DNA from: a virus
Taxonomy: Monodnaviria > Loebvirae > Hofneiviricota > Faserviricetes > Tubulavirales > Inoviridae
Reading direction: 5' to 3' (one strand)
IMG/VR virus record: IMGVR_UViG_2695420792_000001
Coordinates: 1 to 6,287 of that record
Length of the DNA: 6,287 nt
The notes beneath the pieces are model-generated. The model was not told where the DNA came from. It did no database searches and was given only the letters and a program-made list of their open reading frames with translations. Made by a program: the position numbers and the translations under genes. Below, one piece after another: positions 1-6,287 of this stretch; within the stretch, counting starts at the first letter, position 1, and every line of letters starts with the position of its first letter.

Positions 1-84
1 TTCGGGGGAAAAACGAGTATTTTTAGTCATCCTGTTTACCTCTTTCTCAGGAAGTTTAGTCTCCAGGATTCCCGGGGCGGTTCA
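1..84 (-). mobile_element. Partial IS3-family insertion sequence (IS629/IS1203-like), orfA-proximal terminal inverted repeat end; element body extends leftwards out of the window
   Basis: Bases 1-84 are the exact reverse complement of 5960-6043, which contains the terminal repeat TGAACCGCCCCGGGAATCCTGGAGA and the start of the transposase OrfA ([11 protein letters not shown]...). The element terminus is at position 84 (…TCA on the + strand). Confidence 0.85.
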
Positions 85-118
85 GGTTTCGATATCGATT
101 AAAGGTTCGATTCTGAAA

Positions 119-1048
119 ATGTCGGGAAATCCATCCCGATGGAACAGACTGGACAATTTGTTTGGTCACACTTCTGTTGATGCCTGTGTGCAGGTATACA
201 ACCGGATCCTGAATGACCTTGGTCTGCCGGAATTCACAAAATGTACGAAATTGTGGCAGAGACAGGCAAGTGAAACTGAAAAGGCCGGAACGGTTACTGA
301 TGGCGCATGTATTCGTGAAATTCACATTACATCCAACCGAACAGTCGGAGCAGATAATGTAGATGACTATATATCGGGCCTTTCAACATTACGGTATCGC
401 AATAGTGAGCCGCGATTACACAGCAACGGTAAATCAGTTGACTGGCTATCCAAAAAAGGAAACGCCTTGCTCATTTATCCGACTGTATATAATAAAGCAC
501 ATGAAATTAAGCTTCACTCCCTTAATAAAATAAAGAATAAATTCGGGGATTCATCAGCTGAAGTTTCATACATCAAAAAGATTATTGATTTCTGTCAGGA
601 ACAGGGCGTAGTCAGATTTGAGCAAAAACTTAAATCCCGGTATCTGCAACGTAACCATCTTATTTACTGGGGGCTTTCCGACTATTCAATACTCAATAAT
701 TTACATGATGATTTTTTAGCTCTTGATAAAAAGCTTATGGTGACGTCGATGGATTTTGAAACGATTAGTGAACATTTAATCAGTGAAGGCATTGTTGACT
801 CAACTCGATCAGCGAATACCACTGCGATGTATGCTATCCAGTGGATGCACGGTCACTCATTTGATTTTTCTAAAACACAGGTGCAAACCCATCGTGCCAG
901 GCTTAGAAAAATAGGTATTGACATTGCTCAGCGATGTAATATTTCCAAATTTAGCCCCGTTATTGTTAAGAAAGTGAGAGAAGTATCAGTAAGTGAATGC
1001 TTTATTCCATCATGGTATGTGAAACCACGTTATTTGCATGTTGCATAA
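119..1048 (+). CDS. Replication initiation protein (gene II-like), 5'-truncated by the IS insertion; reading frame is open upstream to the IS junction at 85 and into the IS, so Met119 is not the native start
   Basis: Large ORF immediately upstream of the gene V homologue, as in the Ff gene order. The frame has no stop between position 29 and 1048, so it runs across the IS junction. It contains a Y-x3-Y-x-K motif (IYPTVYNK, nt 476-496) reminiscent of catalytic tyrosine motifs in rolling-circle initiators. No direct sequence alignment is possible from memory. Confidence 0.55.
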   Translation: MSGNPSRWNRLDNLFGHTSVDACVQVYNRILNDLGLPEFTKCTKLWQRQASETEKAGTVTDGACIREIHITSNRTVGADNVDDYISGLSTLRYRNSEPRLHSNGKSVDWLSKKGNALLIYPTVYNKAHEIKLHSLNKIKNKFGDSSAEVSYIKKIIDFCQEQGVVRFEQKLKSRYLQRNHLIYWGLSDYSILNNLHDDFLALDKKLMVTSMDFETISEHLISEGIVDSTRSANTTAMYAIQWMHGHSFDFSKTQVQTHRARLRKIGIDIAQRCNISKFSPVIVKKVREVSVSECFIPSWYVKPRYLHVA

Positions 1049-1060
1049 GAGGATATTTAA

Positions 1061-1348
1061 ATGATTAAGATTGAAATTAAACAGTCTCAGGCCATTGCCG
1101 ATACGCGTTCTGGCGTGTCGAAGTCGACCGGGCAGGCGTATACAATTAATGAGCAGTCTGCATATATTTTTCTTGGCCAGGATTATCCACAACTCTTCAA
1201 GTTGAATCTTGACGCGGGTCAGGCACCATACCCGGCGGGATTATATACATTACATCCATCCAGTATTTACGTCGGTGATTTCCAGAAATTACGGGTAGGA
1301 AGAATCGTTCTGATTCCATATCAGGAAAATAAAGAACAGACTAAATAA
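1061..1348 (+). CDS. ssDNA-binding protein, Ff gene V protein homologue
   Basis: The 95-aa product MIKIEIKQSQA..TRSGVS...YTINEQ..Y..LG..YP.L.K..LD.GQ.PY..GLYT.H.SS..VG.F aligns along most of its length with recalled M13 gVp (MIKVEIKPSQAQFTTRSGVSRQGKPYSLNEQ...GLYTVHLSSFKVGQF). RBS AAGAGGA sits about 8 nt upstream. Confidence 0.9.
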   Translation: MIKIEIKQSQAIADTRSGVSKSTGQAYTINEQSAYIFLGQDYPQLFKLNLDAGQAPYPAGLYTLHPSSIYVGDFQKLRVGRIVLIPYQENKEQTK

Positions 1349-1357
1349 GGTATCGCT

Positions 1358-1576
1358 ATGGCTTCTCAGAATATAATGACTGGTAAGATTTGTGATGGCA
1401 ATACTGAGCAGAACTGCCAGATAATAACATTAAATTCCTCTGAGTTGCCATATCAGCAGCTCCCTCCGGCAGAAGATATTGCACTGGTATGGGGAACTGC
1501 TTTTACCTCTGTAATCGTCCTTTATTTAGTATCACACTGTATTGGACTCGTTTTAAATATGATAAAGAGAGCCTAA
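1358..1576 (+). CDS. Small protein with C-terminal hydrophobic segment, in the position of Ff genes VII/IX (putative minor virion cap protein)
   Basis: 72-aa ORF between the gene V and gene VIII homologues. It has a hydrophilic N-terminal half and one C-terminal hydrophobic helix (ALVWGTAFTSVIVLYLVSHCIGLVL). An AGG motif lies upstream. The call rests on synteny only. Confidence 0.4.
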   Translation: MASQNIMTGKICDGNTEQNCQIITLNSSELPYQQLPPAEDIALVWGTAFTSVIVLYLVSHCIGLVLNMIKRA

Positions 1577-1578
1577 TT

Positions 1579-1800
1579 ATGAAAAAGACCATTTTGAAAT
1601 CAGCTGTTGTTATTGCTTCCGTAGTACCTTTTCTGGCTAATGCAGCAGAGTCTGCCGGAGTGGATTTTACTGCATTGACTAATGCAGTGTCATTCGACAG
1701 TGTAATTGTGGCAATTATGTCCGTAGCCGGCATTTTGGTTGGTCTTTATGCCTCCATTGCCGGGGCAAAAACAGTTCTGCGTATGATCCGTGGGGCCTGA
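1579..1800 (+). CDS. Major coat protein precursor (gene VIII-like), 73 aa
   Basis: MKKTILKSAVVIASVVPFLANA is a signal peptide with an A-x-A cleavage site. The mature part has an acidic N-terminus (AESAGVDF), a hydrophobic core and a basic C-terminus (KTVLRMIRGA). Length equals the 73-aa M13 pVIII precursor. I prefer the ATG at 1579 to the ORF-track start at 1489, which would overlap the preceding gene. Confidence 0.8.
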   Translation: MKKTILKSAVVIASVVPFLANAAESAGVDFTALTNAVSFDSVIVAIMSVAGILVGLYASIAGAKTVLRMIRGA

Positions 1801-1807
1801 TAATACG

Positions 1808-1825
1808 GGCAGGGGAAACCCTGCC
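1808..1825 (+). terminator. Stem-loop downstream of the major coat protein gene (GGCAGGG-GAAA-CCCTGCC), candidate intrinsic terminator
   Basis: A perfect 7-bp GC-rich stem with a GAAA tetraloop begins 8 nt after the gene VIII stop. The downstream T tract is weak (TTCAGGAGTTTCTG). Ff phages carry a terminator at this position between genes VIII and III. Confidence 0.45.
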
Positions 1826-1922
1826 TTCAGGAGTTTCTGTGATATTACATTTCTGGCTAATTACCTGTTTTCTCTGGGGTCTTCTTTGTGCCTGGGCAGT
1901 TATAAAAGGATTAGGAGGGTAA

Positions 1923-3188
1923 ATGAAAACTCTTTTAATTGCATTGTTGTTATCTATCATTAGCTTTTATTCATACAGTGCAGAGAACGCAGCTGTTATT
2001 AATCAGACCATTTCAGGAACCATTAAAAACAAAATTACACAGCGTGGTTTCTCAGCGAATGATCCTCGATACTACGGAACATTAAAAGGTATTTCAGGTT
2101 ATCTAAATTCTACCGCTTCAGGTTCGAAAGCTTATACCGTTGCAGGTGTCTCTGGTCGTTCGTGGTTATCAGTTGGACTCAGAGGGGCTTTGTTAAGCCG
2201 CGGTACGCTTATAGCTCTTGCCGCTTCCGGTGCGGTGGCATGGCTAATTGAGACTGAGGACTCCGTACAAATCAAAGTAAAAGAAATAACGGGAGAGCAG
2301 GGTGTTAAAGGGTTTTACTGGAATATTGGCGCAGAAAGCTATGTTACAGCAACTGAGGGAGCTCAGTCGATATGCCAGCATAATCCGGCGTTCTGTCAGA
2401 CATACATAGTTGAGCAATATAATGCAGACCCGACAAGGTCTGATTTAAGAACCATCAAATTTTATATTGATTCATCTAAAACACAGCTTTGGGCATCACG
2501 AACTGCAAACCTTGTTTCCTGCGGTACAAATAAGGTTATGCCTACATGTCAGCCTGATTATGTGCCGGGTAGTAATGAAGTAATTAAAACCGTTAGCGTA
2601 CAGGATGCTATTAATAGCATTTCAGATACGGAAATGCAGACAGATCTTTCGCCAGAAGTTATTTCTGATGTTGTAAATAATGCATGGCAAAAAGCAGCCT
2701 CCGAAGCAGGGTATTCTGGTTTTGCATACGACCACACCAGACCAGTGACAGCGCGTGATGTAACTGCTTCAACTGGTGCTGCAAAGCCCGCTGTATCTGA
2801 CTTTCTCAAACCGTCAGACAAACCCGATTTTACACTACCTGCTGACACAACAGGGACAACACCAACCAATCCATCGACAGGAGAACAGGTTAATCTTGGT
2901 GATGATCCTGGTATTGGGCCGCCTGAACTGGAAAATATACCTGCAGGTACTGAAATTTTATCTCCATTATTATCATTCAACCCCTTTGAAGATTCAGCCG
3001 ATGCACTTAATGCAGAAAGCGAAAGAATTAAATATGCGGAGTGTCCAAAACCTGTACTGGATGTTTTTAACGGACAATATAAGTTAGAAACACATTGTAC
3101 ATTATTAAATAATAACGCTGCGATGATTGGTGTTATTTTTCTGTTCATTTACTCAATAGCAGCGTTCAGAATTATCCTTTCTGCATAA
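1923..3188 (+). CDS. Adsorption/minor coat protein (gene III-like), 421 aa
   Basis: Strong RBS AGGAGG about 5 nt upstream. The signal peptide MKTLLIALLLSIISFYSYSAE resembles the recalled M13 pIII leader (MKKLLFAIPLVVPFYSHSAE). The C-terminus has two Cys (ECPKP...THCTLL) followed by a membrane anchor (AAMIGVIFLFIYSIAAFRIIL), as in M13 pIII. A Pro/Thr/Gly-rich linker lies in the middle. Size matches pIII (424 aa). Confidence 0.85.
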   Translation: MKTLLIALLLSIISFYSYSAENAAVINQTISGTIKNKITQRGFSANDPRYYGTLKGISGYLNSTASGSKAYTVAGVSGRSWLSVGLRGALLSRGTLIALAASGAVAWLIETEDSVQIKVKEITGEQGVKGFYWNIGAESYVTATEGAQSICQHNPAFCQTYIVEQYNADPTRSDLRTIKFYIDSSKTQLWASRTANLVSCGTNKVMPTCQPDYVPGSNEVIKTVSVQDAINSISDTEMQTDLSPEVISDVVNNAWQKAASEAGYSGFAYDHTRPVTARDVTASTGAAKPAVSDFLKPSDKPDFTLPADTTGTTPTNPSTGEQVNLGDDPGIGPPELENIPAGTEILSPLLSFNPFEDSADALNAESERIKYAECPKPVLDVFNGQYKLETHCTLLNNNAAMIGVIFLFIYSIAAFRIILSA

Positions 3189-3197
3189 AGGTGATTT

Positions 3198-3485
3198 ATG
3201 TTTGGCATCATGACCTCTGTTTTATATGGCGTTCTTGGGTTTTTATTGCGCTCAGTTATTGTGAAGTTTACGGTGTTTTTTGCATTGTATTTTATTGTGC
3301 AGGAATTCGTGCCGCTTATTCTCGATATGGTTAATCGCCAACTCCCACTTCTTGCGTTAATTTCAAGTATTCCAGATAGCCTGAAATATTTCTTCTCTGT
3401 TTTTAAAGTTATAGATGGGATTAACATAATACTTTCAGCTTTTGTGACTCGCTTTATTATTCGTCGAATTCCGGTAATAGGATAA
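3198..3485 (+). CDS. Minor coat protein (gene VI-like), hydrophobic 95 aa
   Basis: Highly hydrophobic small protein immediately after gene III and before gene I, matching Ff synteny. RBS AAGGTGA upstream. Confidence 0.7.
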   Translation: MFGIMTSVLYGVLGFLLRSVIVKFTVFFALYFIVQEFVPLILDMVNRQLPLLALISSIPDSLKYFFSVFKVIDGINIILSAFVTRFIIRRIPVIG

Positions 3486-3489
3486 TTTT

Positions 3490-4515
3490 ATGGCTGTATC
3501 ATTGTATATGGGTGTGATGGGGAGCGGTAAAACATACGAGGTTGTTTACAGTGTTATTATCCCTGCGGTTTCAGCAGGCCGCCGTGTAATCACCAATATC
3601 AAAGGGATAAATGAAGAGAAAATACATGAGTATTGTCGTTCTAAATTCAAGACTAAGCAGCCTGGTCGTGTTGTTTTCGCATCGACGGATGAAATATTAA
3701 AGGATGATTTCTTCCCTTTTTACTCTGATGATGAATCTTCAGAACAAAAAGCAGCATTTTGTGAATATGGTGATCTGATTTGTCTTGATGAATTATGGTC
3801 AATATGGCCATCGGACTCAAAACTATCTGAGGCACATAAAAGATTTATTTCAATGCACCGTCATATGACACATGCTGTTAGTGGGGTATCATGTGATTTG
3901 GTCATCATCAATCAGGGTGTAGATGGTGTACCCCGGTATCTTAAAGAGCGTATTGAATCGACATACCGGATGACCAAACTAAAATCTTTGGGGCTATCAA
4001 AGTCATATCGTGTCGATGTTTTTTCTGGTGCCAAAGTATTCAAAAATAATAAAGTCAGTACTCGTAACTATCAGTACAAAAAAGCCGTTTTTGAATTATA
4101 CAAATCTTATGAAACCACTAACGGAATGGAAGCGACAACAGACTCTAGACAAAACGTTTTTTCATCCGCCTTTCTTTGGGTGAAAATTGCATTTTTATTA
4201 TTTATTGTACTGGCTTCTATATATTCAATAAGAACGGTCTGGGTGGATATTAGAGGAGAGTCAGTACCAGAGCCGAAACATACCGAACCGGAGGTTGTAC
4301 TGCCTTCATCAGAAAAGATTGCGAAACCTGATGCCCCGTACTCAAAGCGCTGGCGTATTGCCGGGGAGTTAAAATCAGATTATGTCAGCAAGGTTGTTCT
4401 TACAGACAGCAATGGTCGGTTTAGAACGCTACCGGCAAATCAGTTCGACGGAGAAGGTTTTACTTTAAGTGGAATCATTGATGGTGAAATTGTCACCTAT
4501 TTTACTGGGGGTTAA
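3490..4515 (+). CDS. Phage assembly protein pI (Zot-family P-loop NTPase), 341 aa
   Basis: The N-terminus MAVSLYMGVMGSGKTYEVV carries a Walker A motif (GxxGSGKT) and resembles recalled M13 pI (MAVYFVTGKLGSGKT). A single transmembrane helix (FLWVKIAFLLFIVLASIYSI) lies about two thirds along the protein. It sits directly upstream of the secretin gene. Confidence 0.9.
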   Translation: MAVSLYMGVMGSGKTYEVVYSVIIPAVSAGRRVITNIKGINEEKIHEYCRSKFKTKQPGRVVFASTDEILKDDFFPFYSDDESSEQKAAFCEYGDLICLDELWSIWPSDSKLSEAHKRFISMHRHMTHAVSGVSCDLVIINQGVDGVPRYLKERIESTYRMTKLKSLGLSKSYRVDVFSGAKVFKNNKVSTRNYQYKKAVFELYKSYETTNGMEATTDSRQNVFSSAFLWVKIAFLLFIVLASIYSIRTVWVDIRGESVPEPKHTEPEVVLPSSEKIAKPDAPYSKRWRIAGELKSDYVSKVVLTDSNGRFRTLPANQFDGEGFTLSGIIDGEIVTYFTGG

Positions 4516-4516
4516 T

Positions 4517-5728
4517 ATGAAATTATTTTATATCATAATAATGGTATTTATGATTCCACCTGCATTATCAAAAGGCGTTATACTGAATCTCTCAGGATTA
4601 ACGCTTAATGATGCCATTACTTTGTTTTATACTGAAGTTATGAGAAAACCGTTCATGGTTTCTCCTGAACTTATCACGGACAAACGACAAGTTAATTTCA
4701 ATATTACGCCAGATATGGATGAGTATACGTTTATTATGCGTTATCTCCAGAATGCCGGAGTCTCTGTAGCCAGAAAAAATGGTGTGGATTACTTTTATCT
4801 CCAGGAGAAAAAAGTATACGAAGCCCCGAAATATTCTTTTGTTTACACACCACAGTACCGTTCTGTTGCTTATCTGGCTGATATTCTTCAGTCACAAGTG
4901 AGCGGGTCATTTTCAAATGGTGGGCAAATAGGGCATGGCGATGTTTCTCCTGCGATGATTAAAGACAATACCGCATCCGATTTTTTGAGCAGAAATGGGG
5001 ATGTACTTGTTTTTTACGGTACGAAAAAAGACATTCAGCGGGTCGAAGATTTGCTTCCTCTTATCGACCGGGCCGCCGAAGAAGTTATTGTCGCCGGGTA
5101 CGTGTTTGAGGTTCAGACGTCTGAGCGAAATGGTTCTGGCCTGGCACTGGCTGCCAAACTTATGTCGGGAAAATTCACAATAGAAACGGGTACTGCACAA
5201 GGACTCAGCAACTTTGTCCGTTTCAGTTCTGGATCGCTCGATGCACTTTATGAGTTGTTCAGAACAGACAGCCGTTTTCACGTCGTCAGTTCGCCACAAT
5301 TGCGGGTCAGAAATGGCTCTAAAGCATCATTTTCTGTGGGATCTGACGTGCCGGTACTCGGTCAGGTCAGCTATGTTGATGGTCGTCCGGTTCAGTCCAT
5401 TGATTATCGTTCAAGTGGCGTAATTTTTAACGTTCAGCCGCAAATCCGGGCTGCTACGATTGACCTTAATATTCATCAGCAACTGTCTAATTTTGCAAAA
5501 ACAGAGACTGGGGTGAATAACAGCCCGACGCTCATTAAACGGGAGGTGAACACCGATGTTTCGCTCAAGGATGGCGACATAATTTTACTTGGTGGTCTGG
5601 CTGAGAATAAAGACAGTAATGCAGATACGGGCCTGTCATTTTTGCCGTCATGGTTCGGAACAACGGCAACTGAAAAAGCAAAAACAGACATCATTATTGT
5701 ACTTCAGGCCAGAAAAATCAGGCGGTGA
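4517..5728 (+). CDS. Secretin, phage pIV-like outer-membrane export channel, about 403 aa
   Basis: Signal peptide MKLFYIIIMVFMIPPALS. The C-terminal secretin-type region (VSLKDGDIILLGGLAENKDSNADTGLSFLPSWFG) resembles the recalled pIV C-terminus (…MDGQPLLLGGL…GVPFLSKIP…). I chose the start at 4517 because it follows the gene I stop (4513-4515) and a GGGGG RBS; the ORF-track start at 4469 would lie inside gene I. Confidence 0.88.
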   Translation: MKLFYIIIMVFMIPPALSKGVILNLSGLTLNDAITLFYTEVMRKPFMVSPELITDKRQVNFNITPDMDEYTFIMRYLQNAGVSVARKNGVDYFYLQEKKVYEAPKYSFVYTPQYRSVAYLADILQSQVSGSFSNGGQIGHGDVSPAMIKDNTASDFLSRNGDVLVFYGTKKDIQRVEDLLPLIDRAAEEVIVAGYVFEVQTSERNGSGLALAAKLMSGKFTIETGTAQGLSNFVRFSSGSLDALYELFRTDSRFHVVSSPQLRVRNGSKASFSVGSDVPVLGQVSYVDGRPVQSIDYRSSGVIFNVQPQIRAATIDLNIHQQLSNFAKTETGVNNSPTLIKREVNTDVSLKDGDIILLGGLAENKDSNADTGLSFLPSWFGTTATEKAKTDIIIVLQARKIRR

Positions 5729-5959
5729 GAGCAGGGCGGCCAGCCCCGCAGCTCCGTGAGGAGCTGGCCGTACTGAGACACCGACTGTTGATTGATTGTG
5801 TAAATCATGAACGGCGTGATTTGCGCATGCGCAAATTTCTCGTCAATTCTTATGGGGAATCTATGGCTACAAAGTTGAAGTTTATCCGACTGAAAATTGA
5901 AGATGAGTTAATCCAGCCGGTTAATAATCTGGCAGGCATTCGCGATGAGTTAAAGGCCG
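5729..5959 (+). promoter_or_regulatory. Remnant of the phage intergenic region, truncated at 5959/5960 by the IS insertion; contains a GC-rich dyad and a perfect 18-bp palindrome
   Basis: Located after the gene IV stop, where Ff phages carry a terminator, the packaging signal and the origins. Hairpin CAGCTCC-GTGA-GGAGCTG at 5749-5766, or the alternative CGGCCAGC/GCTGGCCG pairing at 5737-5770. Perfect palindrome ATTTGCGCATGCGCAAAT at 5819-5836. Confidence 0.5.
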
Positions 5960-6287
5960 TGAACCGCCCCGGGAATCCTGGAGACTAAACTTCCTGAGAA
6001 AGAGGTAAACAGGATGACTAAAAATACTCGTTTTTCCCCCGAAGTCCGTCAACGGGCAGTCCGTATGGTTCTGGAAAGTCAGGATGAATATGACTCACAG
6101 TGGGCGGCAATTTGTTCCATTGCCCCAAAGATTGGCTGTACGCCGGAGACTCTGCGTGTCTGGGTTCGCCAGCATGAGCGGGATACCGGGGCGGTGATGG
6201 TGGGCTCACCAGCGCTGAACGTCAGCGTCTGAAAGAGCTGGAACGTGAAAATCGTGAACTGCGCCGCAGTAACGATATCCTTCGCCA
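5960..6287 (+). mobile_element. Partial IS3-family insertion sequence (IS629/IS1203-like), orfA-proximal end; element continues beyond the window
   Basis: Terminal repeat starts TGAACCGCCCCGGG at 5960. OrfA begins at 6014 with [23 protein letters not shown]…[18 protein letters not shown], which matches my recollection of IS629 OrfA. Identical over 84 bp to the inverted copy at 1-84. Confidence 0.9.
6014..6232 (+). CDS. IS3-family transposase OrfA (helix-turn-helix N-terminal part); frame is interrupted before the leucine-zipper segment, which continues in the -1 frame from 6178 to the window end
   Basis: The ORF encodes the HTH-like N-terminus and stops at 6230-6232. The leucine-zipper-like sequence [19 protein letters not shown] is read in the -1 frame from 6229 onward. 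The two frames overlap at 6178-6232, around a G4 run at 6188-6191. Confidence 0.7.

Follow-up and report, generated by a model that had tools for sequence, protein, structure and literature searches.

The window analysed here, a stretch of 6287 nt that corresponds to the entire contig CYEH01000056.1 of the draft assembly GCA_001284685.2, ends inside an insertion sequence whose orfA is divided between two reading frames near a short run of G. Is this division a programmed frameshift of the kind used by IS3-family elements, a mutation that inactivated this particular copy, or an error of the assembly?

Identity of the insertion sequence

Judged by its sequence, the segment 5960–6287 (plus strand) is the left end of an IS629/IS1203/IS3411-type element of the IS3 family, common in E. 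coli; IS3-family transposase loci matching it are found in 3738 of the 5426 complete E. coli genomes. Phage homology ends at 5959, and what follows is the left 328 nt of a 1310-bp element that runs off the contig end, leaving orfB and the right inverted repeat (IRR) beyond the window. The left terminal inverted repeat (IRL), TGAACCGCCCCGGGAATCCTGGAGA at 5960–5984, starts with TGAACCG as expected of 5′-TG...CA-3′ termini and agrees at 23 of 25 positions with the reverse complement of the right end, the IRR compared being that of intact copies. The best complete-genome matches show 99.7% identity over the full 328 nt (100% of the query) with a subject span of 329 nt, and in pairwise as in multiple alignments the sole difference is an extra G in the subjects, GGGGG versus GGGG. 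More than 100 E. coli IS copies are identical to 5960–6287 but for this one G. Identity to copies labelled IS1203 family by PGAP is about 97%, and the labels on close relatives include both ‘IS1203 family’ and ‘IS629 family’. IS1203 and IS3411 are regarded as isoforms of IS629, with subtypes 4–5% apart (PMC3271280).

In IS1203v/IS629, OrfA combines a helix-turn-helix (HTH) with a leucine zipper, the DDE triad belongs to orfB, which is read in the −1 phase, and the transposase is OrfAB, produced by a frameshift in the last heptad of the leucine zipper (bioRxiv 10.1101/2023.06.07.543989). This layout is displayed by the intact copy of E. coli 14EC017 (L004), which is otherwise the same DNA as the 328 nt of the window: 1310 bp bordered by TGAACCG...CGGTTCA, encoding a 108-aa OrfA (MTKNT...) and a 296-aa OrfB, annotated by PGAP as a joined CDS with ‘programmed frameshift’. 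The canonical OrfA is therefore continuous and about 108 aa long, as the earlier note had it. In the same copy, an A6 slippery run occupies IS positions 373–378, immediately before the orfA stop, and an ALIL pseudoknot (Rfam RF01497) is detected at IS positions 336–452, scoring 121.5 bits where the gathering threshold is 50. Transposed to window coordinates, the A6 run would fall at about 6331–6336 and the pseudoknot at about 6294–6410, both past the window end at 6287, as the note had anticipated in placing the programmed OrfAB site farther downstream. The window stops at IS position 329, and orfB in its −1 phase, the A run and ALIL are seen in L004 and L006, two references that are otherwise identical to it.

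The orfA frame is broken at a G run

A putative Shine-Dalgarno sequence, AGAGG at 6001–6005 (plus strand), precedes the orfA ATG by 8 nt. Read from the sequence, the frame opened by ATG 6014 closes at TGA 6230–6232 and its product has 72 aa; this truncated frame (6014–6232, plus strand) comprises 59 native residues, corresponding to the HTH part, followed by 13 out-of-frame residues and the stop. In the −1 frame (phase of 6013), the final stop is that at 6175–6177; no further stop interrupts it between 6178 and the end of the window (6287), and the rest of OrfA is encoded there: codons 60–91, shifted to the −1 frame at 6190–6285 (plus strand), specify residues identical to 60–91 of the intact 108-aa OrfA. 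The remaining frame contains many stops across the region. Our re-reading thus retrieves the frame ends, the −1 opening at 6178 and the G run on which the earlier note had based its description of an OrfA split near a GGGG.

Domain searches are in agreement with this division. The 72-aa product matches Pfam HTH_Tnp_1 (PF01527) over residues 1–58 and profile positions 1–51 of 75 with 32.6 bits, above the cut-off of 24.1 bits, so the N-terminal HTH expected of an OrfA is present; the frame-repaired 91-aa translation covers profile positions 1–74 of 75 with 48.7 bits. The NCBIfam search with the 72-aa product returned no match, and the 108-aa OrfA alone gave a sub-threshold IS3 match (44 bits against a 160-bit cut-off), because the NCBIfam model covers the whole OrfAB. 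The leucine-zipper heptads are found in the −1 frame, at L76 (6238–6240), L83 (6259–6261) and L90 (6280–6282). The window copy consequently does not have the continuous orfA with a terminal leucine zipper, its zipper codons being out of frame.

The alignment with intact copies contains one gap and is otherwise unchanged over 328 nt. This gap falls in the run GGGG at 6188–6191 (plus strand), bordered by C6187 and C6192, so that the core of the allele reads CCGGGGC where that of the canonical G5 allele reads CCGGGGGC. The distribution of orfA over two frames is no statistical pattern; it reflects a single, deterministic departure from the canonical element. According to the alignments, the window copy shows a one-base deletion in the G5 run and not the programmed frameshift; the 1-bp indel relative to the canonical element that had been suspected is precisely the G5 to G4 change, which alone distinguishes the window from the intact copy.

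Distribution of the G4 allele

The exact 77-nt context of the G5 allele is found in 1472 complete-genome records, and 32 contain the full-length exact 76-nt context of the G4 allele; a search of the same collection for an exact G6 allele found none. The G4 copies examined are marked by PGAP as ‘frameshifted’ pseudogenes. A reference OrfA ending normally at this position, the outcome against which the earlier note had set its reading, did not emerge from these 1472 exact G5 records nor from the annotation of the G4 copies.

As a control, one base was deleted from the C5 run (IS positions 77–81) or from the T5 run (IS positions 72–76), each in a 59-nt SNP-free context, and the same collection was searched. 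The C5 deletion is present in 34 exact full-length records and the T5 deletion in at least 40, versus 32 for G5 to G4. Since contractions of C5 and T5 are as frequent, the G run does not contract more readily than other 5-nt runs of the element. We accordingly rejected the idea that the run of G is a particular hotspot of mutation or a phase switch, deletions in C5 and T5 being equally common and an exact G6 being absent from the collection. The contraction pattern is that of ordinary homopolymer decay, or of homopolymer miscalling in assemblies. As a yardstick, about 30–45 of several thousand complete-genome records are contracted in any given 5-nt run, and a single contraction is therefore unremarkable.

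Around two thirds of the 32 G4 records belong to one ETEC group. There, a G4 copy sits at a fixed chromosomal locus (DeoR regulator / ilv pseudogene / IS / group II intron, near rbsK) that is common to FORC_031 (Korea), L1_E925, E8 (Bangladesh) and E2386 (Bolivia), other strains of the group having further origins, and a second one adjoins eltAB on the LT plasmids of the group. A group II intron is inserted in these ETEC copies as well. In this ETEC group, the G4 deletion is a real and inherited mutation. Altogether, four sequence backgrounds carry G4. The copy of TUM9812 is otherwise full length (1310 bp); apart from the deletion and one silent SNP (C165T) it matches the intact reference, and it specifies an identical 72-aa product.

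The intron itself deserves a comment. IS629-type copies with an LtrA-encoding group II intron at the same internal position, the CDS being cut after about 739 nt, were observed in several of the loci retrieved (L001 at 1555–3329; L003, L008–L010, L013 and L014). They reside on ETEC plasmids (pETEC_73 and the LT plasmids by eltAB) and at the chromosomal site near rbsK, and they vary in the run, some having G5 (E24377A) and others G4.

Could the two frames be joined by recoding?

A −1 ribosomal slip, or slippage of RNA polymerase, could in principle restore the frame and provide low, regulated amounts of OrfA and OrfAB. A −1 shift anywhere in 6178–6229 would give back the exact OrfA sequence, and the 96 nt located 3′ of the run (6192–6287, the zipper-coding segment of orfA) fold somewhat better than shuffled sequences, with a predicted −36.8 kcal/mol, z = −2.70 and 2 of 200 shuffles. 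Yet the in-frame G5 copies have this same downstream sequence and therefore the same predicted fold, so nothing in it is specific to G4, and ALIL, farther downstream, was the only Rfam family in the references, none being detected over the segment matching 6192–6287. Following the slippery-motif rules taken from PMC4066793, the 0-frame codons ACC GGG GCG contain neither a Z_ZZN tetramer nor an X_XXZ_ZZN heptamer, and G-based tetramers were not frameshift-prone in that systematic E. coli study, even with a strong pseudoknot (PMC4066793). Moreover, G4 is a rare state (32 versus 1472 records), the out-of-frame arrangement is not conserved among functional copies, the deletion is not commoner than those of the C5 and T5 runs, and several G4 copies are otherwise wrecked by the group II intron. 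Functional recoding therefore appears extremely improbable to us, and corrective or programmed frameshifting at the G run was set aside on the grounds that there is no in-frame slippery motif, that G tetramers are not shifty and that G4 is rare.

Mutation or assembly artefact?

The more serious alternative is that the IS copy adjoining the phage truly has G5, the missing base being a consensus error at a low-coverage end or the product of a chimeric repeat assembly through reads or k-mers of another copy with G4 in the same genome. The position of the run invites this suspicion. Both ends of the draft contig lie in the same IS, and the run, part of a multicopy repeat, is 96–100 nt away from the end of the contig (its first G exactly 100 nt), where coverage, consensus quality and copy assignment are weakest. 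All IS subtypes compared are identical over IS positions 166–328; copies are therefore indistinguishable to an assembler in this interval and their assignment rests on read pairing. A donor of the G4 sequence is also conceivable, as decayed copies with G4 coexist with G5 copies in some E. coli genomes (E2863, 39 places). Likewise, contraction is similarly infrequent for all three 5-nt runs in the finished genomes (32, 34 and at least 40 records), which is also what homopolymer miscalls would give. Finally, the allele is rare, the exact 72-aa protein being present on 2 contigs versus 861 for the intact 108-aa OrfA.

These arguments have to be balanced with several others. The same allele occurs at an orthologous locus in independently sequenced strains, which makes it a genuine biological variant, at least elsewhere. 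De Bruijn assemblers normally drop an error path in favour of the path of higher coverage, here that of G5, so a path derived from an error would normally lose. The length of IS recovered, 328 nt here versus 84 nt at the other end of the contig, would be expected if a copy-specific variant had given unique sequence. The right IS–phage junction is also present in the Logan assembly of run ERR14205758, whose contig ends 29 nt into the IS, and the independent presence of this junction indicates that the insertion itself is real. We found no such phage–IS junction in finished genomes; coverage of the window by any one complete E. coli genome reaches 93% at most. On balance, we suppose that the missing base is probably a real mutation of this copy, and we hold an assembly or sequencing artefact to be less likely, though by no means improbable.

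The numbers at the contig ends are curious in themselves: exactly 100 nt remain after the first G and exactly 84 nt of IS are present at the other end, which hints at assembler or read-length effects. No k-mer size of the assembler follows from them: 84 nt would fit k = 85 and 100 nt would fit k = 101 or 100-nt reads, with no single k for both.

The prophage setting

The 85–5959 part of the window is a fragment of a filamentous (inovirus-like) prophage, with genes for a replication initiator (Phage_CRI/G2P), a single-stranded DNA-binding protein, a DUF2523 protein, Zot and a secretin. Prophages of nine complete E. coli genomes share 99.5–99.8% identity with it; a megablast search of the INPHARED phage collection yielded no match. 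In one reference locus (L005, 2852–11850), the prophage units are in tandem and about 9.0 kb each. Relative to such a unit, about 3 kb are missing from the window, namely the remainder of the gene interrupted by the right IS, a HigA-family antitoxin gene, an HTH-domain gene and hypothetical genes.

At the other contig end, positions 1–84 (minus strand) correspond to a second, inverted IS left end consisting of the IRL and the first 30 nt of orfA. It forms with 5960–6043 an inverted repeat that is 100% complementary, and stops short of the G run. The phage fragment is thereby bracketed by two IS629-type copies with both IRLs facing the phage, an arrangement that could have arisen by two insertions or by an IS-mediated rearrangement. 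The left IS removes the first ~150 nt of the replication gene, that is the Rep N-terminus, and the right one interrupts a small hypothetical gene. In the ERR14205758 assembly, the left part of the prophage is intact, with the full 371-aa Rep and regulators upstream, while the right junction is the same; the right IS insertion is therefore shared and the left one is not. An 87-aa ORF (5725–5988) crosses from the phage into the IRL, and an identical junction ORF is found in that assembly (L015, 7001–7264). The TCA at 82–84, at the end of the inverted IS, corresponds to the same bases in the uninterrupted prophage (L005 ...gcgaTCAggtttc), so the left junction is ambiguous by 3 nt. No matching target-site duplication was seen between the two IS–phage junctions.

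Consequences for the element

If the deletion is genuine, replication slippage is the most likely cause of the loss of one G from the G5 homopolymer (IS positions 229–233). A 72-aa protein would then be translated from ATG 6014, with the N-terminal HTH kept and the leucine zipper missing. Ribosomes would halt at the premature TGA generated by the change of frame (6230–6232, plus strand), about 100 nt before the expected A6/ALIL programmed −1 site, and OrfAB, which joins OrfA to the DDE domain of OrfB, would therefore not be made from this copy. We infer that neither full OrfA nor OrfAB could be produced from the window copy and that transposase activity has been lost. The window, which includes the first 328 of the 1310 bp of the element, would thus contain part of a non-autonomous pseudogene; provided that the right end of this copy is intact, the copy might still be mobilised in trans by intact ones.

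Full-length OrfA alone has been reported to depress excision (bioRxiv 10.1101/2023.06.07.543989). One could imagine by extension that an HTH-only OrfA fragment arising from homopolymer loss is a recurrent and selected damper of active IS629 copies, where the fragment would bind the IS ends and act in trans to reduce how often the copies that are still active transpose or are excised. We consider this scenario very unlikely.

What has been observed belongs to a class of events already known, the deletion or miscall of one base in a homopolymer, here within a well-known IS, and gives no sign of a new mechanism. Its importance is mostly one of annotation. The source record names the product of the 72-aa ORF ‘IS629 ORF1 protein’; the copy would be better called a frameshifted pseudogene, or a possible assembly error, and its split orfA should not be confused with the programmed OrfAB frameshift.

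Comparison with known systems

The window copy resembles IS629 and its isoforms IS1203 and IS3411 of E. coli and Shigella in its terminal sequence TGAACCGCCCCGGG, in the start of orfA and in protein sequence. Unlike them, it is without one G of the G5 run, its OrfA would have 72 instead of 108 aa, and no OrfAB is expected from it.

Its closest counterparts are the IS3-family pseudogenes called ‘frameshifted’ by PGAP, namely those linked to rbsK and eltAB in ETEC and those of E2863, 2014C-3655 and TUM9812, which share the identical G5 to G4 deletion in the same 76-nt context. They occupy other genomic sites, and differ further by C165T in TUM9812 and, in the copies of ETEC and STEC, by 5–6 SNPs in the first 150 nt. 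The group II intron is a further difference, present in many of the copies from ETEC.

With the programmed −1 site of IS3-family elements (A6/A7 and ALIL, RF01497), the window copy has in common a −1 change of frame within orfA. The programmed site is located about 140 nt farther downstream (IS positions 373–378) and combines an A run with a conserved pseudoknot, whereas the G run has no in-frame slippery motif. In contrast to the programmed A-run site, the run is G5 and in frame in functional copies.
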